NCBI GenBank assembly: GCA_019661945.1
Contig: JAIFWI010000002.1
Location: 763 to 64,762, forward strand
DNA from: Candidatus Parcubacteria bacterium
GTDB lineage: Bacteria; Patescibacteriota; Minisyncoccia; Phycocordibacterales; JAKAEA01
Reading direction: 5' to 3'
DNA length: 64,000 bases
Both the position numbers and the translations under genes were made by a program. A model generated the notes under the pieces. That model was not told where the DNA came from and made no database searches. It saw only the letters and a list, made by a program, of their open reading frames with translations. Below, piece after piece: positions 7,193 to 52,984 of the stretch. Position 1 is the stretch's first letter; the number at the start of each line of letters is the position of its first letter.

Positions 7193-8938
7193 ATGACACT
7201 GCTAGACGCTCTTGCAGAAAAAAAACTAATCTCTAAAAGCCAGGCTGCGGAAATTCGAGAAGAAGTAGAACGCGGCGACAAAACCCTTGAGATTGCACTC
7301 AAGGATAGAGGCATTACCGAAGAACAAATTCTGATAGTTAAATCAGAAGTGTTGGAGGTGCCGGTCCGGACTATTCAGAATGTGGAGACCTTACAGTCAT
7401 CGGTACTCGATTACATTCCTGAAGAATCGGCCATTCACTATAAATTTATTCCACTCGGAGTAAAAGATGGTGTGCTTGAAGTTGGACTTGTTGATCCTGA
7501 CAATATTGAAGCTCGGGATGCTCTAAGCTTTATTTCCACAAAAGTAAATATGCCCTATAAGGCATATCTCATTTCTCAGACTGATTTTGAGAAAGTATTG
7601 GGGGCGTATCGAAATTTAGCTTCTGAAGTAACAAAAGCTCTGGATGATTTGGATTCAGAACTTAAGGGTACAACCCCTGCCCAAGAAGACAAAGTTTCAA
7701 GTACAAAGCCTGGAGAGGGAGCAAAGGGAAAAGAGAATAATGATGATACAAAGATTGTTGAAGATGCGCCGGTAACAAAAATTGTAGCTACCGTTCTGCG
7801 TTATGCCAGTGAGGGCAATGCTTCTGACATTCACATTGAGCCTATGCGAGATAATGTTCGAGTTCGATTTCGCGTTGACGGCATTTTAAATACCAGTTTA
7901 GTCCTGCCAAATAAAGTTCATGCAGCTTTGGCCGCCCGCATAAAAATACTTTCAAACATGCGTCTTGATGAAAAAAGAAAACCTCAGGACGGACGTTTTT
8001 CGGCAAAAATTGAAGGACACAAAATTGATTTCCGTGTTTCGACATTCCCGACATATTTCGGAGAGAAAGTCGTGATGCGTATCCTTGATCAGGAAAAATC
8101 TGTTAAAAATTTCGATGTCATGGGCCTGACTGAACGAAACTTAAATCTTATTAAGGCTGCTATCAAGAAACCATATGGTTTGATTCTTATTTCTGGTCCA
8201 ACCGGTTCCGGAAAAACCACGACGCTCTATTCTATGTTGAGCCTTGTCGATCGTGAACGAAAAAATGTTCTATCCCTCGAAGATCCGATTGAATACAATA
8301 TGGATGGTGTCAATCAGTCTCAGATTCGACCGGAAATCGGCTACACCTTTGCCAATGGTCTGCGTACTACCTTGCGTCAAGACCCGAACGTTATTTTGGT
8401 GGGAGAGATTCGAGATAAAGAAACAGCTCAGCTTGCCGTCCAGGCGGCTCTTACCGGACACTTGGTGCTTTCAACCATTCACACCAATAACTCTGTTGGT
8501 GTAATTCCGCGTCTCATTGATATGGGAGTTGATCCGTATCTTATTGCGCCGACGCTTGTTTTGGCTGTTGGTCAGCGTCTGGCGGCCATGCTTTGTCCTG
8601 GGGCTGGTAAAGAAATTCCGGTGGAAGGGAGCCTGAGAGTTCGAATAGATAAGCAATTTGAAGATTTACCAGCCGAAATTAGGAAACAAATTCAAATCCC
8701 GGCCACTATACGGGAAGTTGAGCCAACCTCAGAATGTCCAAGCGGTACACGCGGCAGAGCACCTGTCTTTGAAATGTTTGAAATGGATAAAGACATTGAG
8801 CGAGCCATATTATCCAATGCCACGGAGCTCGAAATTTCAAAAATCGTTCGCCAGAAAGGCATGCTTAACATGCGGGAAGACGCTTGGCTCAAGGCTTTTC
8901 GGGGGGAACTGCCTATCGAGGAGGTAAACAAATTGTAA
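7193..8938 (+). CDS. pilB: Type IV pilus extension ATPase PilB (GspE family)
   Basis: 581 aa; Walker A GPTGSGKTTT, Asp box, His box, C-terminal tetracysteine-like region. Confidence 0.9.
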   Translation: MTLLDALAEKKLISKSQAAEIREEVERGDKTLEIALKDRGITEEQILIVKSEVLEVPVRTIQNVETLQSSVLDYIPEESAIHYKFIPLGVKDGVLEVGLVDPDNIEARDALSFISTKVNMPYKAYLISQTDFEKVLGAYRNLASEVTKALDDLDSELKGTTPAQEDKVSSTKPGEGAKGKENNDDTKIVEDAPVTKIVATVLRYASEGNASDIHIEPMRDNVRVRFRVDGILNTSLVLPNKVHAALAARIKILSNMRLDEKRKPQDGRFSAKIEGHKIDFRVSTFPTYFGEKVVMRILDQEKSVKNFDVMGLTERNLNLIKAAIKKPYGLILISGPTGSGKTTTLYSMLSLVDRERKNVLSLEDPIEYNMDGVNQSQIRPEIGYTFANGLRTTLRQDPNVILVGEIRDKETAQLAVQAALTGHLVLSTIHTNNSVGVIPRLIDMGVDPYLIAPTLVLAVGQRLAAMLCPGAGKEIPVEGSLRVRIDKQFEDLPAEIRKQIQIPATIREVEPTSECPSGTRGRAPVFEMFEMDKDIERAILSNATELEISKIVRQKGMLNMREDAWLKAFRGELPIEEVNKL

Positions 8939-32500: not shown

Positions 32501-32566
32501 ATAGAAAAGTGAACTCAGCTTGCCTTTATGCCATTTTGCGCTACTATAGTCTCAGAAAGGAGCCTC

Positions 32567-32680
32567 ATGCATATACCAGCCCTTTTCCGGCGCAGGAAAG
32601 TTAGTTGGAAAGTGATTGGGGACTGGCTTACACCGTATCTCGTGAACCTCCAGTACCTCAGCCCTCATATTTTCTGAGGG
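32567..32680 (+). CDS. Candidate 37-aa small ORF (MHIPALFRRRKVSWKVIGDWLTPYLVNLQYLSPHIF) with RBS and terminator
   Basis: aaaggag 4 nt before ATG; hairpin plus T-tract right after the stop; below the track size cutoff. Confidence 0.25.
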
Positions 32681-32687
32681 TTTTTTC
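32655..32687 (+). terminator. Rho-independent terminator (ccctca ... tgaggg tttttt)
   Basis: Read directly. Confidence 0.55.
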
Positions 32688-32737
32688 TTGCTTGAATACT
32701 TGAATAAAGGCTGATTTTACAGTATCTTGGAGTGACT

Positions 32738-32811
32738 TGCGGGATCGTCTAATGGTAGGACATATGCCTCTGGAGCATAGTATCTTGGTTCGAGTCCAAG
32801 TCCCGCAGCCA
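32738..32811 (+). tRNA. tRNA-Gln(CTG) with encoded CCA
   Basis: U1:A72 acceptor TGCGGGA/TCCCGCA, anticodon loop CTCTGGA, T-arm TTGGTTCGAGTCCAAG, discriminator G plus CCA. Confidence 0.85.
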
Positions 32812-32848
32812 ATGCTTTTCAGATAAGCTCTGCTATAATTAAAGTTAT

Positions 32849-33172
32849 ATGAAGAAACCAATAACTACTTTATATCTTTATCTCGGTGTCGTCGTACTCA
32901 TTTGGATAATCGCAGCAATAATGCTGACTACAATTTCTTTTCAAGATGCAGGTGGTCTTCTTGTTATATTACCAGCTATTGGATTAAGTATTGTACTTAT
33001 TGCAATAGGTTTAATACATTACTCAAAGGTTAAATCTAAATTTATCAATCAAAACCAACTTCCACAATTCAGTCATTCTCCAACTATATTTCGTTGGGCA
33101 GGTATCATACTAATACTTTGGTTAGCTCTTTGGCTATTAGCTCCATATATATCAAATTTGTTTGGTTTTTAA
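32849..33172 (+). CDS. Hypothetical small membrane protein
   Basis: 107 aa, 3 hydrophobic segments. Confidence 0.5.
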   Translation: MKKPITTLYLYLGVVVLIWIIAAIMLTTISFQDAGGLLVILPAIGLSIVLIAIGLIHYSKVKSKFINQNQLPQFSHSPTIFRWAGIILILWLALWLLAPYISNLFGF

Positions 33173-33292
33173 GCACTTAAACTGGTTCCAACATCGTACA
33201 CGACGGTCAGCACTCATAAAAATCGTACCGGCATTATAATATGCAACACAATGGTTGCATATTTAAACACAGCATGATATCCTAAGCATATA

Positions 33293-33745
33293 GTGTTTAT
33301 AAATAAAAAATATATGCAAAACATAATCAAGCGTGAAGTTACAGTTAAAGCCGATAAGGAAAAGGTCTACAATGCAATTGCCAATCCTGAAAAAGTTGTT
33401 CAGTGGTTTCCTGATGAAGTAGAAGGTAAGTATGCGGCAGGCGAACGTCCAATATTTACATTTAAGGGGCATGGTAAGGCTCAGATTTATGTTGTCGATG
33501 CAAAGCCATATGAATATTTTTCGTATCGATGGATTCCAGGTGCTCATGACTTTATTGGCGATGTGTTAGCTGTCCCAAACACATTAGTTGAATTCAATAT
33601 TCAAGAAGAAAAAGATGGTACATGCAAAGTGGTGATGACAGAATCCGGTTTTGCAGCATTGCCAAGTGATACCGCAGAAAATGCATTCAAACAAAATTCC
33701 GGAGGATGGGAGTTCATGCTTGGCCGACTTGAGAAACTTTTTTAA
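33293..33745 (+). CDS. SRPBCC superfamily protein (AHSA1 / polyketide cyclase-like)
   Basis: About 145 aa with the typical beta-rich pattern; start may be 33314. Confidence 0.6.
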   Translation: MFINKKYMQNIIKREVTVKADKEKVYNAIANPEKVVQWFPDEVEGKYAAGERPIFTFKGHGKAQIYVVDAKPYEYFSYRWIPGAHDFIGDVLAVPNTLVEFNIQEEKDGTCKVVMTESGFAALPSDTAENAFKQNSGGWEFMLGRLEKLF

Positions 33746-33755
33746 GTAAAATAAT

Positions 33756-34067
33756 ATGGAAGCTCAAATTTTCAGGGCACTCGGTGATCCCTTGAGGCTC
33801 AAGATCGTCAAACGACTTTCTGGCGGGTCAACCCACACAATGGGAGATGTCACAAAAGGTCTTGGTGTCTCGAGGCAGGGTGCCCGAAAACAACTGCAAG
33901 TACTCGTTTCTGCAAAGATTGTACAGTTAAAACCCATTGGCCGTGAGGTAAGGGTACTACTGAACGCGAGTGCATTAAAATCGGGAAGGGACTTTATTGC
34001 CAATCTTGAAAACCAGTGGGACAAGCGCTTGAGAAAACTTAAGGAAGTTGTTGAAAAAGATTCGTGA
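33756..34067 (+). CDS. ArsR/SmtB-family HTH transcriptional regulator
   Basis: LGDPLRLKIVKRL...MGDVTKGLGVSRQGARKQLQVL. Confidence 0.75.
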   Translation: MEAQIFRALGDPLRLKIVKRLSGGSTHTMGDVTKGLGVSRQGARKQLQVLVSAKIVQLKPIGREVRVLLNASALKSGRDFIANLENQWDKRLRKLKEVVEKDS

Positions 34068-34106
34068 TTGACTGAACCCTTGCCGACAGGCATCCCGCAG
34101 TAATAT

Positions 34107-34134
34107 TTGACAAATATCATATTTTATATATAAT
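34107..34134 (+). promoter_or_regulatory. Near-consensus sigma70-like promoter: TTGACA, 16-nt spacer, TATAAT
   Basis: Read directly, 48 nt upstream of the ATG at 34183. Confidence 0.35.
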
Positions 34135-34182
34135 ATTTTTCGGTAGAAAGTTCCTCAAACTAAACCATCAACGGGAGAACTC

Positions 34183-34986
34183 ATGGCTGGAGATATGGAT
34201 CGAGAAACTCGTCTCAACCTGTGCCATAAGCTTATGGCAAATGCGGAATGGTGGCAGGGAAAGGTGAATGATGACCATCTCACACTGGTGATTGCCTTTC
34301 TTAAGGAGAGAATGGTTGTGGCTCGGCCATCAGACAGCAGTTCTGTCGGGGCCATGACGCCATTGCCGAAGGGTGTGCCGCCCTTGTATGTTGTGCCTCT
34401 CATGTCGCATGACCAGTATGTCGGTCGAGGAGAATGGAGGCAGTACCTCCATAGCGACAGCTCTGCCTGTTTCGTTGGGCCGGCATCACTTCTGGTCCTC
34501 TCAAGTCTCATCGATCGGAGCTTGGTGTCACTTGCGCTTGTATTCTTGCATGAGGCTGACCATGCTTATGGATGGTTTGTGCTCGGCAATAATGGTGAGC
34601 GCAATGGGCAGGCGAGGCTTGATGAGGAGATCAGGGTTCGAAGGAACGATAACAGAGCGATGACTAAGTTCGGGTTCAATCCTTACAATCGCTACATCGA
34701 CCTGTTAGCCCTGAAGGTGAAAGAAGAGATTGAAACCAAAGACGAGATGTGGATTGAACGGTGCATGTGTTCTGATTGGAGGGTTCTTGATGGCTTCTTG
34801 GGTTCTTCAGTAAGTGGGAGCGAACAACGATTTCGTCAGTCGAAGATTGCTCACCATGTCATTGAAGTTGTGGCAAGCTTGCTGCAACCCGATGAAGCGC
34901 AGCGCCCTGTTCTACATCGAGAGCTTCTGTTGTGCTTTTACGCGAAGGCTGCGCCGCCGCCGATGCTCAAACGGTATGCTGATTGA
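34183..34986 (+). CDS. Hypothetical protein with HExxH (LHEADHAYG) motif in a GC-rich island; putative zinc metallopeptidase
   Basis: 267 aa; gggaga RBS; GC-rich with ORFs open in several frames. Confidence 0.45.
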   Translation: MAGDMDRETRLNLCHKLMANAEWWQGKVNDDHLTLVIAFLKERMVVARPSDSSSVGAMTPLPKGVPPLYVVPLMSHDQYVGRGEWRQYLHSDSSACFVGPASLLVLSSLIDRSLVSLALVFLHEADHAYGWFVLGNNGERNGQARLDEEIRVRRNDNRAMTKFGFNPYNRYIDLLALKVKEEIETKDEMWIERCMCSDWRVLDGFLGSSVSGSEQRFRQSKIAHHVIEVVASLLQPDEAQRPVLHRELLLCFYAKAAPPPMLKRYAD

Positions 34987-35103
34987 TTCAGTCCAGATAC
35001 TACATTGTTTATCTGGGCTTTTTTCTTTTTAGTGCTATACTTGCGGCAATAGTTGAGACCAGCCTAAGGCTAGAAGGGTATTATAAGTTAAGTATTTAAT
35101 AAT

Positions 35104-35418
35104 ATGGAACTTGAAGATTTTATCACTACTACTCTTTTAGAAATTCAGAGAGGTATTCGTAATGCCAATATCAAAATTGCTAAAGAAGCGGGTAAAAAAT
35201 TGGGAGTTGATGAAACAATACAATATCAAATAGACAGAGGTAACAAAGGTATAAAGTTTGACGTTGCTGTTACAGTTAGTAATGAAAAAGGCGGAGAAGG
35301 TGGAGGTAAAATCAAGGTGGCAGTAATAGATGTTGGTGGTTCAAAGACTACAGCATCAAAGGAAGAATATGTCAGTCACATAACTTTTGAAGTAAATCCT
35401 TTTAGAAGTGTCCATTAA
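35104..35418 (+). CDS. Trypco2-like small protein (effector-associated domain)
   Basis: 104 aa; C-terminal pattern KFDVAVTVSNEKGGEGGGKIKVAVIDVGGS...SHITFEV matches my recollection of the trypco2 family. Confidence 0.4.
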   Translation: MELEDFITTTLLEIQRGIRNANIKIAKEAGKKLGVDETIQYQIDRGNKGIKFDVAVTVSNEKGGEGGGKIKVAVIDVGGSKTTASKEEYVSHITFEVNPFRSVH

Positions 35419-35481
35419 ATATATGAAAATTAAAATTTCTTACTTACTTGTATTTAGCCATTGTAATCTTGGAGCAAAGCC

Positions 35482-36075
35482 ATGATAAAAGCTATAATTT
35501 TTGACTTAAACGGTATATTTATACAGAGTCCCAAACTAAGTGAACGATTTGAGAAGGACTTTAATGTGCCTATTCCCGAATTTCTTCCGAAATTATCGGA
35601 AATTATGGATAAAGTACGACAGCCGAATGCTGGTGGTTCTTTTCAGTACTGGAAACCTGCCTTAGAAAAGTGGAACATTACTCTATCTGAACAAGAGTTT
35701 TGGGATTATTGGTTCAAGGCAGAGACTGTTTCTGAAAAGATGGTTGAGTTTGCGAAAGAATTACGAGCAAAAGGCATTAAGGTTTTCATCCTTTCTAATA
35801 ATTTTAAAGAACGAGCTGAGTATTATGGTCATTATCCTTGGATTTATGAAGCGGTGGATAAGGTCTATTTCTCTTGGCAATCTGGATTTGTTAAGCCTGA
35901 TCCACAAGCTTGGTTACAAATACTATCAGAAAATAGTTTAAAACCAGAGGAATTTCTTTACTTTGATGACCAAGAAAAGAATCTTAAAGCAGCCCAAAGT
36001 ATTGGTATAAAATCCTTCATGTTTACCACTGAGAAGAGTTTACAGGAAACAGTAAATGAGCACATTCCTTTTTGA
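35482..36075 (+). CDS. HAD-superfamily hydrolase
   Basis: N-terminus IKAIIFDLNGIF (motif I variant), later SNN and DD motifs. Confidence 0.65.
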   Translation: MIKAIIFDLNGIFIQSPKLSERFEKDFNVPIPEFLPKLSEIMDKVRQPNAGGSFQYWKPALEKWNITLSEQEFWDYWFKAETVSEKMVEFAKELRAKGIKVFILSNNFKERAEYYGHYPWIYEAVDKVYFSWQSGFVKPDPQAWLQILSENSLKPEEFLYFDDQEKNLKAAQSIGIKSFMFTTEKSLQETVNEHIPF

Positions 36076-36087
36076 TATACTTGAATC

Positions 36088-36498
36088 ATGAAAATATTTG
36101 TTTGTACAAGCAGGCATCTGTATGACAAGGCTAAGCCAGTTATTCAAGCTCTGGAACAGGCAGGGCATACAATAACATTGCCGAATAATTTCGATGATTT
36201 CGGAAGAGAGAATCGTATGAAGGCCGAACAGGCAAGTGATTACCCAGCATGGAAAGCGAGTATGTTTCGAAAGCAAGCCGAAAAGGTGGCGAATAATGAT
36301 GTAATCTTAGTGATGAATTTTGAAAAGGAAGGAAAGCCAAATTATATAGGCGGGGCAACTTTTCTGGAGATATTTAAAGCATGGGAGCTTAGTAAAAAAA
36401 TCTTTTTCTATAATCCTATTCCTGAAGGAATGCTTCGAGATGAACTTGTGGGTATGAGCCCTACAGTGATTAATCAAGACATATCTTTAATTGATTGA
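36088..36498 (+). CDS. Nucleoside 2-deoxyribosyltransferase-like (Rossmann-like) protein
   Basis: MKIFVCTS N-terminus and GGATFLEIFKAWELSKKIFFYN resembling the NDT-fold nucleophile region. Confidence 0.35.
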   Translation: MKIFVCTSRHLYDKAKPVIQALEQAGHTITLPNNFDDFGRENRMKAEQASDYPAWKASMFRKQAEKVANNDVILVMNFEKEGKPNYIGGATFLEIFKAWELSKKIFFYNPIPEGMLRDELVGMSPTVINQDISLID

Positions 36499-36501
36499 TA
36501 T

Positions 36502-37263
36502 ATGCTATCAAAACCCACTATCGTAAAGATGTTCGATGAACAAGCAAAGGCATTTGCTGAGTTCTCCCAAGAATCGTTCCAGTGGCATCATATGGAGAAG
36601 GGCATATATGATAAATACTTGAGCGACAACTTTTTAAATAACTCAGAAATTTTAGATATAGGTAGTGGAGCAGGAAGAATAATGAAATATCTTAACCAAA
36701 GGGGAGTATTGGAAGAGAACATCACCGGAGTAGATGTAAGTAGTGAAATGGTAAAAATTGCCAAAAATCGCTTGCCGGGAGCAACATTTGCGAATCAGGA
36801 TATTGCACATTTAGATCTCAGTAATAAAAATTTTAGCCTCGTCACGTCCCATATGGTCTTTGAATTTCTGGATAATGACCAACTGCATAAAACTTTAAAG
36901 CAGGCTTATGATCACATGGCTGAGAATGGAACTCTTATGTATACAACGACTCATCCTAACAAGATGGCCTCAGGAGATTATGCAAATTACAAGGATAAGC
37001 AGTTTTGGATTGATACGTCAGCTCCATGGGAAGGTGGAATATCTACCTTTCACCGACCGACCAATGATTTCATCAATGCAACAATAAAAGCTGGTTTTCA
37101 TATTGATAGAATTATCGAAATAGGTTTCGATCTAAGTGCAAAAGAGGAGAGTGCCTTAAAAGTCGCAAAGTATCTTAAATACGGGCCAATGAGATTGATG
37201 GTTATGGCCAGGAAACTAACCAAAGTTAAAAAACCATCAGCACGTGCTGTTTTGTATACTTAA
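36502..37263 (+). CDS. Class I SAM-dependent methyltransferase
   Basis: Motif I ILDIGSGAGRI. Confidence 0.75.
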   Translation: MLSKPTIVKMFDEQAKAFAEFSQESFQWHHMEKGIYDKYLSDNFLNNSEILDIGSGAGRIMKYLNQRGVLEENITGVDVSSEMVKIAKNRLPGATFANQDIAHLDLSNKNFSLVTSHMVFEFLDNDQLHKTLKQAYDHMAENGTLMYTTTHPNKMASGDYANYKDKQFWIDTSAPWEGGISTFHRPTNDFINATIKAGFHIDRIIEIGFDLSAKEESALKVAKYLKYGPMRLMVMARKLTKVKKPSARAVLYT

Positions 37264-37266
37264 TTC

Positions 37267-37650
37267 ATGAACACTCCCTTCAAAATCACTCGAAAGCTAT
37301 TCTGTATTAAAGATGGGGAAGTTAAAACACCTCCAGCTGATAGTTTTCACACGCATACTGAATGGTTCACGGATGAGGGCTGGATTGATGAGAATAATGT
37401 AGATATGTTTTTGGAAACAGTTGATCGGGGCTACTATTTTCCTGAGAACAATACTTTATATACATATACCGGTTATGATTTCGCTTTCACCGAGAAGACA
37501 GTTTCAAATGTGAAATCAGTTATACCTCTGCTTAAAGAAGCTTTGCACCTTGGCCTTGATACTAAAATCTGCTTTGGTCCAAAAGATAAAGTGTTTAATG
37601 GCCGAGAACATCCTCAGCTTTGCATTGGGGATTTAAAGGATATACTTTAG
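37267..37650 (+). CDS. Hypothetical protein
   Basis: 127 aa ORF, no motif recognised. Confidence 0.4.
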   Translation: MNTPFKITRKLFCIKDGEVKTPPADSFHTHTEWFTDEGWIDENNVDMFLETVDRGYYFPENNTLYTYTGYDFAFTEKTVSNVKSVIPLLKEALHLGLDTKICFGPKDKVFNGREHPQLCIGDLKDIL

Positions 37651-37652
37651 GT

Positions 37653-37922
37653 ATGGACATCCAATTTATTTTAAGTATTTTAGTCAGCATATTTTCACTT
37701 GCCCTTGTGCTTGTTGGCATACCGGCTCAGATTGCAAAAAATTATAGGGAGAAAAGATCGGGTCAGCCGGTGATGACGATACTTATTGCTCTAGCCTTCT
37801 ATGCATCCCAAATAGGTTTTTTCATCGTTACTCACACCTGGTTGCCGCTTGTCTCTTTCATTATTGGTATTATTTTGTGGGGTGTGACCCTGGTGCAGTA
37901 TTTTCTGTATCGTCAGAAGTAA
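37653..37922 (+). CDS. SemiSWEET-like 3-TM PQ-loop protein
   Basis: About 89 aa, three TM, GIPAQIAKNY PQ motif after TM1. Confidence 0.45.
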   Translation: MDIQFILSILVSIFSLALVLVGIPAQIAKNYREKRSGQPVMTILIALAFYASQIGFFIVTHTWLPLVSFIIGIILWGVTLVQYFLYRQK

Positions 37923-37940
37923 TAATGATACTATTACTAC

Positions 37941-38963
37941 ATGAGAGAATATCTGCTCATATTTGAGCAACAGGTGGATCAATTTATTTCGAGTCAGTAC
38001 ATTGAGCTCAGGGCATTTTTTCTAAATCCTTCGGACTTACCGCCGCTTGTGCCTACTCTTATTACGGCCATCTTTGTTATTGCAATTCTTGCCACTATTT
38101 TTCTTCTGTTTATATCAATCCATTCTGTCTTAATTCGACTGGGTCTTAAAAAGGGGGTTCAGCATTGGGGTATCATCTACGACAGTGTTACCAAGCAGCC
38201 TCTTGATCCAGCTGTTGTGGAACTACGAGACGCTGTTGGCAGACGGATGGGAAGTGCCATTACCGATATGGACGGGCGGTATGGTTTCTCCAGTCAGATA
38301 CCGGGGATTTATACCATGACCGCAAACAAGACTCATTATATATTTCCCTCGCAAAAACTTGCCGGACACACTGATGATGGTATATTTACCGATCTTTATT
38401 TTGGAGAGCAGATGTATTTTACCAAGGATCAAGAGGTCATAATAAAAAATATACCTCTAGATCCTGTTGAATTTGATTGGAATGAACATGAGAAAAGAAA
38501 AGAGCACCTATCTCATTCCTATTCACGGCACTTTACCTTCCTGAAATTAAGTATACATTGGTCTTTTATTACAATACTTATAGTGACCATTGCGGCAAGT
38601 TTTTTGGTACCTGCATCATATCGATATGTAATCTATGTACCATTAGGATTATTTCTCTGTACCAACATTATTCGGGCGTATCTTATCTCACCACGGCCAT
38701 ATGGCATAGTCAGGGATAAGAAAAGCGGCACACCGCTTCCATTTGCTACGGTCAATATATTTTATGCTTTATCTGCATCGGAACCAATTAAATACGGTAC
38801 GAAAAAATGTGATAATCATGGAAAGTATTACTGCTTAGTACCTAAAGGCCGTTACTTTGTCACTATCGAAAAATGGGTTCCAAACCAGAAAAATGTCAAC
38901 ATTTTTACGTCACCACCATTTGTGATTACCAATGGCATTCTTAATAATACGTTTGAGGTGTGA
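37941..38963 (+). CDS. Membrane protein with carboxypeptidase-regulatory-like (Cna B-like) beta-sandwich domains
   Basis: Motifs DMDGRYGFSSQIPGIYTMTA and NHGKYYCLVPKGRYFVTIEK; TM segments. Confidence 0.45.
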   Translation: MREYLLIFEQQVDQFISSQYIELRAFFLNPSDLPPLVPTLITAIFVIAILATIFLLFISIHSVLIRLGLKKGVQHWGIIYDSVTKQPLDPAVVELRDAVGRRMGSAITDMDGRYGFSSQIPGIYTMTANKTHYIFPSQKLAGHTDDGIFTDLYFGEQMYFTKDQEVIIKNIPLDPVEFDWNEHEKRKEHLSHSYSRHFTFLKLSIHWSFITILIVTIAASFLVPASYRYVIYVPLGLFLCTNIIRAYLISPRPYGIVRDKKSGTPLPFATVNIFYALSASEPIKYGTKKCDNHGKYYCLVPKGRYFVTIEKWVPNQKNVNIFTSPPFVITNGILNNTFEV

Positions 38964-39069
38964 TCTTGTGTTTCTTGGCTTTTTGAGTACTATACGGTGA
39001 GATCAGGGAGATACCTCCCAAAGCTGACAGGCCTTTGTCTGTCGAACCTGAACCTTGAAAAGGAGCGTT

Positions 39070-40665
39070 ATGAAAAACGCACTGATATCCGTGTATCGCA
39101 AGGATGGCATCGTCGAATTTGCCCGAGCACTCATGGAGCTCGGCTTCACGATCTACGCCTCGGGTGGGACGTACAAGCATCTCGCAGAACATGGCATCGA
39201 GACTCTGCCTGTGGCGAATCTCGTCGGCGGCGGAGCCATTCTCGATCATCGAGTGGTGACCCTGTCGCGTGAAGTTCACGCCGGACTTCTGGCCAGGAAT
39301 ACGCCAGAGGACATCGGCGAATTGGTCAGCCTGGCCATTCCACGCATTGACCTGGTATGTGTTGATCTCTATCCATTGGAAAAGGAGATCGCCAAGCCCG
39401 GCAGCACGCGTGACTCAGTCATCGAGATGACCGACATCGGCGGCCCGACCATGATTCGCTCTGGTGCTAAGGGCGCTCGAGTGGTCATCTGCGATCCGCA
39501 GGATCGGGACGAGGTCATCGCTTGGCTTCGAGCCGGTGAACCGGAGAATGGGTTTGTCGAAGATCTCGGTGCAAAAGGTGAATTCACTGTCGCCGGGTAT
39601 TGCATGGCTTCGGCTAGATACCTAAGCGGCGGTAAATACGAAGGATTTTTCGGTAAGCGTGTTGCGGTCTGTAAGTACGGCGAGAACGCCTGGCAGGCAC
39701 CGGCGCATCTTTATTCGACGGGCAGCGATGATCCACTGGCAATCGACAATTTTGCTGTGGTTGACGGAGCACCCCCGAGCTATAACAATTGGGTCGACAT
39801 CGACCGCTTGCTCCAGACACTGACGCACATTGGCAGGGTATACTCACTCAATCAAGGTGTCGACACAGCTATTGCTGTTGGCGCTAAGCACGGCAATGCA
39901 TGCGGTGTGGCAGTCGGATCAGACCGCGTGGATATTGTCGCCAGGATGATGGCTGGTGATCCACTGGCAATCTTTGGCGGACTGGTCATGACAAACTTTG
40001 AAGTGACTGAAATCTCAGGCCAGGTCCTTGTCGGTAAAATGCTGGATGGCATCATTGCTCCATCATTTACCCCGGCTGCGATAGACATGCTTCGCCGCAA
40101 AGGCGACAGATGTCGGTTCATCGTGAACCCGGCACTCACTGCTTCAAGCAATAGTTTGGATCAAGCGCCGCGTTTCCGCTATGTTCGCGGCGGTTTCCTT
40201 GTCCAGCCGAATTATACGTTCGTGCCGGAGTTTTACATTTCACCACTGGAACACAAGTCCGTGAGTGGAATCGTAAAATATGGCTCGGCTACTGCAAAGC
40301 AAGAAACGGACATGATGCTTGCCTGGGCTATCGGTTCGACCAGTAATAGCAATACGATCACGCTTGTGAAAAATAAGCAGCTCATCGGCAATGGCGTCGG
40401 TCAGCAAGATCGTGTCGGCGCAGCCGAGCTTGCCATAAGGAAGGCTCATCGTGCCGGACATGATGTGACTGATGCTGTGGCCTACAGTGATTCGTTCTTC
40501 CCATTCCCTGATGGACCGCAAAAGCTCATTGAAGCTGGCGTTAGAGCCATCTTCACGAGTAGCGGTTCGGTCAGAGACCGGGAAACGATTGATCTTTGTG
40601 CAAAACACAACGTCGCACTCTACATGATTCCTGATCAAATCGGCCGAGGGTTCTTCGGTCACTAG
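39070..40665 (+). CDS. purH: Bifunctional AICAR transformylase / IMP cyclohydrolase PurH in a GC-rich island
   Basis: MGS-like N-terminus KNALISVYRKDGIVEFARAL...ASGGT; AICARFT domain; AGGAG RBS 4 nt upstream of the ATG at 39070. Confidence 0.85.
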   Translation: MKNALISVYRKDGIVEFARALMELGFTIYASGGTYKHLAEHGIETLPVANLVGGGAILDHRVVTLSREVHAGLLARNTPEDIGELVSLAIPRIDLVCVDLYPLEKEIAKPGSTRDSVIEMTDIGGPTMIRSGAKGARVVICDPQDRDEVIAWLRAGEPENGFVEDLGAKGEFTVAGYCMASARYLSGGKYEGFFGKRVAVCKYGENAWQAPAHLYSTGSDDPLAIDNFAVVDGAPPSYNNWVDIDRLLQTLTHIGRVYSLNQGVDTAIAVGAKHGNACGVAVGSDRVDIVARMMAGDPLAIFGGLVMTNFEVTEISGQVLVGKMLDGIIAPSFTPAAIDMLRRKGDRCRFIVNPALTASSNSLDQAPRFRYVRGGFLVQPNYTFVPEFYISPLEHKSVSGIVKYGSATAKQETDMMLAWAIGSTSNSNTITLVKNKQLIGNGVGQQDRVGAAELAIRKAHRAGHDVTDAVAYSDSFFPFPDGPQKLIEAGVRAIFTSSGSVRDRETIDLCAKHNVALYMIPDQIGRGFFGH

Positions 40666-40681
40666 TTCTTAGGCGAAACGC

Positions 40682-40707
40682 AATACTCCAGGTGGAGTAT
40701 TTTTTTA
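40682..40707 (+). terminator. Rho-independent terminator (aatactcca gg tggagtatt ttttt)
   Basis: Read directly. Confidence 0.5.
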
Positions 40708-41076
40708 TTGTCATTTAAGTTTAATCCAAAAATAGATGAAGCCCTACAACAAACAAATGTGTTGTAGGGCTCCAGGTTGGACCGCTTGTTTTCTCTTCAG
40801 TGGTAATGAGGTGCGGTAAGCTCAGTACCAACGGGCAGGGATTGCCTGCCGGTGCGTCGGGTCTCTACCAGCTGCGCAGTGCGCAGGACGAGGCCGGCTT
40901 GGCCTGCGGGCTGGCTCGTGAGTGCATCATCGGATTTCTCCTCTGATCTGAGCGCGGATTACATGCTTATATACCAGCATGCTCGGTAGCCCCATGAAGG
41001 GCAATCTGTCCTGCCCATAATATTAACTCAACCTTAAAATTTATCAAGCTTATTCCGATTTGCTATACTTATCCAT

Positions 41077-41496
41077 ATGAAAATCTACATTGCTGCGCCG
41101 CTCTTTAATGATATTGAGAAAAAACGAAATGTTGAAATCCGTGACTATTTACAAGGCTTAGGATTTGAAACGTATCTGCCGCAAGAAGATGGCAGCGTGG
41201 CCTTTGATCGAATTAAATCAGGTGAGGAAAGAAGTAAGGTCAGAACAGTGGTATTCGAAAACGATATCAAGGCCATTAAAGAATGTGATGCGATGCTCTG
41301 TGTTCTTGATGGCCGAGTGCCGGATGAAGGAATGTGTATTGAACTAGGTATGGCATATATCCTCGGTAAAAAATGTATTGGCTATAAAACAGATCAGAGA
41401 AGTTTTGATAAATTTGGAGATAATTTAATGATTGAAGGATGTCTTGAAACAATTATCCATTCAAAAGAAGATTTAAAGGCAGCTTTTTCTCGTTGA
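41077..41496 (+). CDS. Nucleoside 2-deoxyribosyltransferase family protein
   Basis: MKIYIAAPLFN N-terminus and CIELGMAYILGKK nucleophile-region pattern. Confidence 0.7.
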   Translation: MKIYIAAPLFNDIEKKRNVEIRDYLQGLGFETYLPQEDGSVAFDRIKSGEERSKVRTVVFENDIKAIKECDAMLCVLDGRVPDEGMCIELGMAYILGKKCIGYKTDQRSFDKFGDNLMIEGCLETIIHSKEDLKAAFSR

Positions 41497-45854: not shown

Positions 45855-45941
45855 GGGACCTCCGAGGTTGGTGACAAGGTTCAAGCGGTACAAAACCTCG
45901 GCTAGTATGTCATATATCGTAAATTTGTGCTATAAAGTGTC

Positions 45942-51801: not shown

Positions 51802-52506
51802 TTACGTATACGTATACGGATACTGATCGATGTCGTACCTTTCGGGTACTTGGAGCGATGTGGGATCTTTTCCGTCCCAACTGATGAGACCTTGAACCAC
51901 CATGTTGGTGATGCCAGGCTGATGCTGATGCTCAACTTTGTTTACGTTTGCTGCCAGCGTTTCGGCAGTATCTTCAGGTGAGATATGCACGAAATGTCGG
52001 AAGAAGACTGGGCCGACGTCGTACTGAGTCTTGTCATCGGACGAAGTTTCACTGACGAAGTGCATGCAAGCGGCAGAGTGAGTAATCACTTTACGTCTGT
52101 ACGCCTCAATACTGGCTTCGTGGACATGATGCCCGAACATGTTATGACCACCGAAGTGATCAGGCCGCCCAGGCATTGTCAGATTCCCTGGATGGATGTT
52201 AATCGTTATCCGAGGATCATGACCAGATATGAGCTTGAGCCATCCTGTCAAAGCAACAAGATCAGGCTCGTACCTCTGGAAAATTCCTCGGTATTCTTCC
52301 TCAATGTAGGGACCTTGGAAAGGGATGAATGGAATTCCTAAGCGATCTGCTCTGACTCGGACACCTCCATTGGGATAGTTGCAAACCACCCCAATGATCT
52401 TTGCCTGAAGTGTCCCATTTTTGGTTGCTTCAAACAGCTTCTCCAATCCTGAACCACCACTTGTGGGTGTTCCAGAAGCCAAACCGAGTATGCGTGGTAA
52501 GCTCAT
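51802..52506 (-). CDS. Formyltransferase-domain protein (PurN/GAR transformylase-like), moderately GC-rich
   Basis: KIIGVVCNYP..., EPDLVALTGWLKLI, INIHPGNL (HxSLLP-like); AGGAG RBS. Confidence 0.55.
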   Translation of the reverse strand: MSLPRILGLASGTPTSGGSGLEKLFEATKNGTLQAKIIGVVCNYPNGGVRVRADRLGIPFIPFQGPYIEEEYRGIFQRYEPDLVALTGWLKLISGHDPRITINIHPGNLTMPGRPDHFGGHNMFGHHVHEASIEAYRRKVITHSAACMHFVSETSSDDKTQYDVGPVFFRHFVHISPEDTAETLAANVNKVEHQHQPGITNMVVQGLISWDGKDPTSLQVPERYDIDQYPYTYT

Positions 52507-52616: not shown

Positions 52617-52802
52617 TTACATCATTTCTTCATCCTCGCTTGATTCAGTTCCGGTACGGCCTTCTTCAGCGGTTGAACCTTCCTCAGATGGTCGGCCACC
52701 GCTGTGGCTTGCCTTACCTCCTTCACTTGCGACACGCTTTCGGGTTTCTTCATCAGCAGAAGCTAATCCTCGCTTGCTGTTTTTGTTTTCGTCATTATTC
52801 AT
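52617..52802 (-). CDS. KGG-repeat stress-induced small protein
   Basis: 61 aa hydrophilic; RVASEGGKASHSGG pattern. Confidence 0.5.
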   Translation of the reverse strand: MNNDENKNSKRGLASADEETRKRVASEGGKASHSGGRPSEEGSTAEEGRTGTESSEDEEMM

Positions 52803-52984
52803 AAGAATAGATATTAAAATTTATAACGAGAATCTGTGTTCCAAACATTTGTTCAGAACGAAACTACAGACGGCAGCACTCTCGGCTTCTTACCTTGTTG
52901 AGGTATGTAAGAAAGCTGGGCGTCGTTCGTTGTTAAAAACGGGACTGCTCTTTATTTATTAGTACATAATACTAAAAAAATTAT

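Follow-up and report, generated by a model that had tools for sequence, protein, structure and literature searches.

We analysed a 64-kb stretch of DNA from Candidatus Parcubacteria bacterium (assembly GCA_019661945.1, contig JAIFWI010000002.1; hereafter the window), which carries a PurH-like gene followed by a GC-rich segment without long open reading frames (ORFs). Sequence comparison points to the purH gene as part of a late-purine module internal to the Candidate Phyla Radiation (CPR), and to its promoter, structured 5' leader and terminator as parts of one conserved cassette, with the leader as a candidate new cis-regulatory RNA. The GC-rich core of the downstream segment is a feature of its own. 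Taking both together, we lean slightly towards a joint explanation in which the purH unit stands beside a small RNA gene formed by this core. The coordinates of all features are collected in Table 1. A search of the literature on purH or RNase P RNA in Parcubacteria/Patescibacteria gave nothing usable.

The purH transcription unit and its leader

The flanks of the closest relatives align with the window from the promoter through the leader to the Shine-Dalgarno (SD) sequence, and the genes beyond purH differ between loci. Among these relatives, the promoter has the form TTGTNT, 16 nt, TA[ACG]TAT, with TTTTTGAG invariant just upstream of the -10 element. The box TTTGAGTANTAT, which covers this part of the promoter, has 11 exact matches in the 100 loci that we searched, all of them at purH, purCE or purM-like promoters, and one in the window. 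(The box recurs with one mismatch at 52966-52978, probably by chance.) At the other end of the gene, the terminator recurs in relatives as AATACTCC...GGAGTATTTTTTT, and nucleotide similarity to the relatives ends there. Because promoter, leader and terminator persist from locus to locus amid different neighbours, the unit at 38966-40708 is best read as a cassette, that is, a self-contained transcription unit.

The leader was searched for with nhmmer and a covariance model (R1) in a space of 0.8 Mb. R1 gave 13 matches at E<=6e-11, upstream of purH and purCE only: the element precedes purH in the window and in nine relatives, with a further case in L100 (nhmmer; L numbers denote the fetched loci), and it precedes the purC-purE fusion in L097, L099 and L010. 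It is limited to one subclade with PurH at least 70% identical, and neither nhmmer nor R1 found it in the ~80 loci with PurH <=66% identical. Leader copies lie at L097:4891-5002 and 3291-3191(-), L099:4890-5002 and 3217-3117(-), L010:3893-4002 and 2337-2247(-), and L100:1327-1439, with the promoter box TTTTTGAGTAnTAT.

Both leader hairpins are present in the minimum free energy (MFE) fold of the window. The first (GGGA-loop-UCCC) is conserved in sequence. The second, H2, keeps the same pairing in three different sequences (GACAGAC/GUCUGUC, GAUACGG/CCGUAUC and GUCGUGG/CCACGUC), with double changes at 5/8 pairs; 90% of its alignment cells are paired, vs 81% in shuffles and 22-61% when the arms are slid against each other, and none of 500 shuffles attained the pairing or the covariation score of the real alignment. 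We infer from the symmetric change in both arms that H2 is more probably an RNA hairpin than a protein-binding DNA palindrome. The H2 5' strand and its CUUU loop can also pair with the SD sequence (AAAGG) and the bases that precede the AUG; such pairing is the MFE structure in L099 and L010 and is possible in 81% of cells. Regulation of translation is the most likely role of the leader, and in the proposed mechanism the H2 5' strand and loop would pair with the SD and start region instead of forming H2. A conserved structure with compensatory changes, 5' of related genes, is what is expected of a cis-regulatory leader of pur genes, and it was found here on a small sample. Two points weigh against so reading it: the covariation comprises few independent events (three stem versions in 13 sequences), and the alternative pairing with the SD sequence is not significant against shuffles (63/500). 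On balance, we put the leader forward as a possible new cis-regulatory RNA for the late-purine module, with translation as the probable level of control.

The leader resembles the ZTP/pfl motif (RF01750) and the purine riboswitch (RF00167) in being a structured element between the promoter and SD sequence of purine genes. Like such riboswitches, it is found ahead of more than one pur transcription unit, with copies before two of them in a single genome. In contrast to these families, it is simpler, consists of two short hairpins with no demonstrated junction or pseudoknot, is found in one subclade, and is at most a putative ligand binder; it has no Rfam match even at E<=10 in a scan of 38900-41200. 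A more ambitious version, in which the leader is a new class of metabolite-sensing riboswitch that gates translation of a horizontally circulating module from aminoimidazole ribonucleotide (AIR) to inosine monophosphate (IMP), and the adjacent 240-nt core is a new structured RNA gene, seems to us unlikely. The leader is a small and concrete candidate for a regulatory RNA among bacteria with almost no known RNA regulation.

The PurH-like protein and the late-purine module

The 531-residue product has the two-domain, collinear architecture of PurH, with an N-terminal MGS-like IMP cyclohydrolase domain (MGS, PF02142, E=1e-15) and a C-terminal domain of the 5-aminoimidazole-4-carboxamide ribonucleotide (AICAR) formyltransferase (AICARFT_IMPCHas, PF01808, E=8e-47). 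It matches M. tuberculosis PurH (PDB 3zzm) over the full length (E=3e-65; residues 2-520 ~ 11-516). With bifunctional PurH proteins (3ZZM of M. tuberculosis; human ATIC, 1P4R) it shares both domains and the KH(G)N(P)CG, DIGGP and SD(S/A)FFPF motifs, and KHGN(A/P)CG, LYP, DIGGP and AKG are kept. The initial annotation had called purH with an AGGAG ribosome-binding site, and a PurH-like ORF preceded by AAGGAG is confirmed. The one database protein that is 100% identical (P0001, from a metagenome-assembled genome of Candidatus Parcubacteria bacterium) is annotated as 'hypothetical protein'.

Some findings set the protein apart from known PurH. The protein falls below the NCBIfam PurH equivalog cut-offs (360.6 vs 402 bits and 305.8 vs 528; NF002049, TIGR00355), and the cyclohydrolase motif RVKTLHP, otherwise universally conserved, is replaced by RVVTLSR (residues 61-67), which is invariant in 38/38 aligned members of the CPR clade (alignment A1). 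The lysine of RVKTLHP is presumably human Lys66, and for the catalytic roles of PurH residues we assume those of the ATIC literature (the Lys-His of KHxNPCG for AICARFT; a Tyr, the Asp of DIGGP, a Lys and the RVKTLHP lysine for the cyclohydrolase). Because the motif reads RVVTLSR across the clade, the exact PurH activity is putative, and the cyclohydrolase chemistry may differ in the CPR proteins. A third difference from known PurH is that purH has no other pur genes with it in the window: PurB and PurC-PurE had no tblastn match at E<=1 in the window, so that the isolation of purH is one seen across 64 kb and may not extend to the whole genome.

In close relatives of the window gene, purH is located in pur clusters, as it is for known PurH. 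Of the 91 loci fetched for PurH relatives, the closest carry a purC-purE fusion (-), purB (+) and purH (+) (L097 and L099), a purB-purH pair (L001 and L010) or purB-purH followed by a purM-like gene (L100). The modules span L097:1851-6575, L099:1771-6572, L100:30-4098 and L001:3197-6381. The purM-like gene after purH in L100 has the same promoter box as the pur promoters. Restriction-modification genes adjoin the module in L099, and SAVED/SMODS genes like those of the cyclic-oligonucleotide-based antiphage signalling system (CBASS) adjoin it in L098. More distant PurH-like genes often follow rplJ-rplL (~20 of these loci) or lie beside purB, purC or tRNA genes; tRNA genes directly adjoin the PurH-like gene in the unrelated loci L046, L017, L038, L057, L009 and L074.

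Association with other pur genes is thus present in L097, L099, L001, L010 and L100, and in the window it is confined to a remote PurN-like protein. The initial annotation had described purH as isolated, which fits the 64 kb at hand but not the closest relatives with their purCE-purB-purH(-purM) clusters. It had also pointed to a PurN-like formyltransferase (51802-52506, -) with folD nearby; the FolD gene is present in the window, whereas the former is only a remote relative of PurN (58.9 bits vs a cut-off of 150).

Composition sets purH apart in the window and in its relatives alike. Its GC content is 0.54 (0.42 in the rest of the window), and its GC at third codon positions (GC3) is 0.57 vs 0.29-0.43 in neighbouring genes. 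The excess in the window lies at synonymous sites. The atypical composition noted in the initial annotation is thereby confirmed, but a GC excess turned out to be the rule in the CPR clade: over 77 loci, purH exceeds its flanks by a mean of 5.4 points, with a positive excess in 95%. The excess is +11 to +14 points in five of the closest relatives, +6.5 in a sixth (L010) and +12 in the window, and the L099 module has a GC3 of 0.64-0.77 vs 0.25-0.34 in its neighbours. Among the best 120 PurH relatives listed (58-77% identity), every named one belongs to Paceibacterota, Taylorbacteria or Patescibacteria, and none is named otherwise; this runs counter to the suggestion of an unusual foreign import into CPR. 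Because the named clade is CPR only, the GC excess is the rule and the closest relatives carry pur clusters, the purH of the window is best seen as belonging to a late-purine module that is internal to CPR and distinct in composition, rather than as a one-off foreign import. Repeated transfer and selection are both possible causes of the distinct composition.

The general view of CPR/Patescibacteria is that they cannot make purines. If the module is as proposed, some of these reduced bacteria have retained half of the pathway, from AIR to IMP, under regulation, as a clade-wide GC-rich cassette with its own promoter box and leader. The module may then move between lineages, which would bear on what CPR bacteria take from their hosts.

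The GC-rich core downstream of purH

The initial annotation joined purH and the segment behind it into one GC-rich island, and at the scale of 1 kb the bins across 39001-41000 do reach 51-56% GC. A 100-nt profile gives a different picture, with 0.48-0.62 in purH, a drop to 0.36 across ~40651-40800 and then, at ~40775-41000, a peak of its own (0.52-0.65). The 2-kb island is two independent features, the purH unit and a GC-rich core of 239 nt, split by a spacer of 36% GC that holds two terminators. The initial annotation had described 360 bp without ORFs (40716-41076); the gap as a whole (40666-41076, 411 bases) has no ORF of at least 60 aa. Where the window has further gaps that are GC-rich and free of ORFs, they hold tRNA clusters.

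On the minus strand, a promoter-like site lies at one edge of the core and a strong intrinsic terminator at the other, the arrangement of an independent small RNA gene; both calls are consensus matches only. The three hairpins named in the initial annotation all exist, but the 11-bp one (gccctacaaca/tgttgtagggc, 40741-40772), which had been assigned to the GC-rich segment, sits within the minus-strand terminator outside the core, and it has no T run on the plus strand. The other two (ggcagg/cctgcc at 40834-40850 and ctgcgca/tgcgcag at 40872-40886) lie inside the core. The terminator has nothing else to terminate, because the nearest minus-strand ORF of at least 100 aa upstream starts at 45893, with none for kilobases. 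The -10 variant of the promoter-like site, TAATAT, also occurs in the conserved pur promoters of relatives. A gene is further favoured by the separate GC peak, the better fold z-score on the minus strand, the lack of a coding signal in every frame and the tRNA content of the other GC-rich gaps. Transcription would run from ~41013 to 40728. We therefore put forward the core, tentatively, as an RNA gene of ~286 nt that is specific to this lineage and runs on the minus strand towards purH, a reading that is plausible and somewhat short of probable. Like orphan trans-encoded bacterial small RNA genes, the core is intergenic and ORF-free, and its promoter-like site and intrinsic terminator share one strand; unlike them, it exceeds the typical length and has no known homologue and hence no conservation. 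An orphan GC-rich segment of this kind matters little unless it is proved to be expressed.

Several results weigh against an RNA gene. First, the segment had been called highly structured, and its folding is unexceptional: against dinucleotide shuffles, the core has a z-score of -2.97 on the minus strand (about -2.8 to -3.0) and -1.38 on the plus strand (about -1.4 to -1.6), and several 239-nt windows within the purH ORF reach -3 to -4. Second, promoter-like matches are common in the AT-rich spacers (6 found vs 2.7 expected). Third, a 53-codon open frame with a coding-like pattern (GC1>GC3>GC2) ends 28 nt before the terminator. Fourth, conservation or covariation was found neither in 100 related loci nor in phage and plasmid collections. 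The related loci (~0.74 Mb; 87 PurH, 4 ProRS, 5 nucleoside 2-deoxyribosyltransferase (NDT) and 4 further PurH loci) gave no nhmmer, blastn or tblastx match to the core, the phage and plasmid collections gave no blastn match, two exact-pattern scans of viral contigs were blank, and the window has no second copy.

The same results bear on the possibility that the core has no function and is a decayed remnant, a pseudogene end or scrap of acquired GC-rich DNA, with the hairpin as the surviving terminator of a lost gene. We regard this account as nearly as likely as the RNA gene. It fits the absence of conservation in 100 loci, a z-score no better than that of GC-rich coding DNA, and the 53-codon stop-free frame, whose position would suit a decayed gene end; furthermore, the PyrG-NDT interval is a mosaic of GC-rich and AT-rich DNA, which the syntenic relative L094 lacks. 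However, a promoter-like site lies exactly at the other edge of the core, tblastx found no similarity to PurB, PurCE, PurM-like proteins or the PurH neighbours of relatives, and the nine stop-free frames gave no Pfam match and no coding signal. An exhaustive phmmer search with the 53-aa frame as query, covering 1.8 billion representatives, returned only two repeat-protein artefacts, a search that is insensitive at this length. The narrower claim of the initial annotation, that the segment is the decayed remainder of the purH block, is weakened because conservation with relatives stops at the purH terminator and no like segment occurs in the 100 loci.

It is very unlikely, in our view, that the core instead encodes a very small protein, such as the 21-codon minus-strand ORF MMHSRASPQAKPASSCALRSW (~40930-40868). 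This ORF has an SD-like GAGGAG 7 nt upstream and is bracketed by the promoter-like site and terminator. Against it, the peptide is too short for homology and has the composition of translated GC-rich non-coding DNA, its SD sequence lies in a predicted hairpin, and the coincidence of an SD sequence and ATG is not rare under loose definitions.

Known RNA families were searched for with equally little result. The core and its edges (40715-41030, 316 nt) had no Rfam match at E<=10, except for microRNA hairpin look-alikes on the terminator; the scan of 38900-41200 at E<=10 likewise added only microRNA-like extras, a gathering-score scan of the whole window found only tRNAs, and ARAGORN found no tmRNA in the window. 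The families covered (Rfam 15) include RNase P, tmRNA, signal recognition particle (SRP) RNA, 6S, T-box, ZTP, purine and other riboswitches, and group I/II introns; no known RNA family explains the segment. That a housekeeping RNA (RNase P RNA, tmRNA, SRP or 6S) lies here, too divergent for Rfam, is highly improbable. A length of 240-290 nt would fit, as would a high GC content against an AT-rich genome, and none of those RNAs was found elsewhere in the window, but there was no match even with relaxed filters, and such an RNA should be recognisable in relatives (a weaker point, as the loci are small samples of those genomes).

An equally remote prospect is that the core acts on the plus strand, as a 5' leader or riboswitch for the NDT and proS genes. 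The core is directly upstream of NDT in the same direction, and in L002, too, purH and an NDT-like gene are separated by DNA free of ORFs. Nevertheless, the core is probably not an NDT leader because a TG-extended promoter-like site lies beyond the core and ends 7 nt short of the NDT ATG. In addition, the strong purH terminator precedes the core and the promoter scan gave no plus-strand site ahead of it, the plus-strand z-score is only -1.4, NDT homologues (69-73% identity) have short, unrelated upstream regions, and no T-box or riboswitch family matched. A retron, with the core as its non-coding RNA and NDT as its effector, was considered and rejected: no reverse-transcriptase domain was found in the genes scanned, proS directly follows NDT, and NDT is a genuine PF05014 enzyme that is also conserved in relatives lacking the element. 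Target prediction for the proposed small RNA with RNAduplex gave meaningless long duplexes and was discarded.

Table 1 Features of the purH unit, the GC-rich core and the adjoining NDT gene.
Feature	Position	Strand	Basis
purH promoter (-35 TTGTGT 38966-38971, 16-nt spacer, -10 TACTAT 38988-38993)	38966-38993	+	Conserved in alignments A2/A4
pur-specific box TTTTGAGTACTAT	38981-38993	+	Part of purH promoter
Candidate structured 5' leader of purH, ~70 nt, two hairpins	38996-39069	+	Covariance model R1, covariation
Leader hairpin H1, GGGAG-ATAC-CTCCC	39006-39019	+	MFE fold of window
Leader hairpin H2, GACAGGC-CTTT-GTCTGTC	39026-39043	+	MFE fold and covariation
SD sequence AAGGAG, 4 nt before ATG	39060-39065	+	Read from sequence
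PurH-like gene (AICAR formyltransferase / IMP cyclohydrolase homologue), 531 aa	39070-40665	+	Pfam, PDB match
purH intrinsic terminator AATACTCC-AGGT-GGAGTATT, then T run	40682-40708	+	Conserved in L097, L001, L010, L098
Intrinsic terminator, 15-bp stem (40737-40774) and UCUAUUUUUG tail	40727-40774	-	Terminator scan
GC-rich ORF-free core, GC 0.58, peaks 0.65	40775-41013	-	GC profile, folds
Promoter-like site TTGATA-16-TAATAT, predicted start near 41013	41020-41047	-	Consensus match only
Promoter-like site of NDT, TG-extended -10 TATACT ending 7 nt before ATG	41041-41069	+	Promoter scan
Nucleoside 2-deoxyribosyltransferase (NDT), GC 0.37	41077-41496	+	PF05014 E=1e-21

The surrounding interval and other small features

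The core sits at the edge of a hypervariable interval between the pyrG/tRNA-Gln and NDT/proS genes. In the window, FtsE-FtsX-PyrG (to 32500) and tRNA-Gln (32738-32811) are followed by mosaic-GC genes, including purH and the core, and then by NDT-ProRS, so that 8.6 kb (32501-41076) lie between PyrG and NDT. The order in L094 is FtsE-FtsX-PyrG-p266-NDT, with ~1.1 kb between PyrG and NDT, and L090 differs again in what lies between PyrG and ProRS. No neighbouring genes are shared with ProRS relatives at 83-85% identity. The interval resembles tRNA-adjacent islands in its mosaic GC, in its absence from L094, and in that tRNA genes often flank PurH-like genes; it differs from them in that there is no integrase among the genes scanned, no direct repeats flank it, and the tRNA-Gln 3' end has no copy. 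A GC-rich orphan ORF within it (34183-34986, GC3 0.55) has no Pfam or NCBIfam match.

At the downstream edge (41041-41079), NDT has no SD sequence and its TG-extended -10 element lies close to the ATG, which suggests a leaderless mRNA. An analogous arrangement was seen in L002 (Taylorbacteria; 7647-8177), where the purH terminator is followed by a 470-nt ORF-free stretch and then an NDT-like gene. Identical 31-nt palindromes AAGAATGTCAACGCTAAGCGTTGACATTCTT flank this stretch, which has a minus-strand terminator (7811-7788) and a z-score of -3.1 on the minus vs -1.65 on the plus strand. It is not similar to the core of the window (alignment score of 17 vs a shuffle mean of 17.7).

Two further small features were observed. 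First, the DNA between pyrG and tRNA-Gln (32540-32690) has an SD sequence (AAAGGAG), an ATG ORF of ~35 codons and a terminator hairpin cctcagccctca...tgagggttttttc, and may be a small gene. Second, a small acidic, Gly-rich ORF (MNNDENKNSKRGLASADEETRKRVASEGGKASHSGGRP..., 52620-52805, -), which has a terminator of its own, precedes the PurN-like gene; its product may be akin to the stress-induced KGG-repeat proteins.

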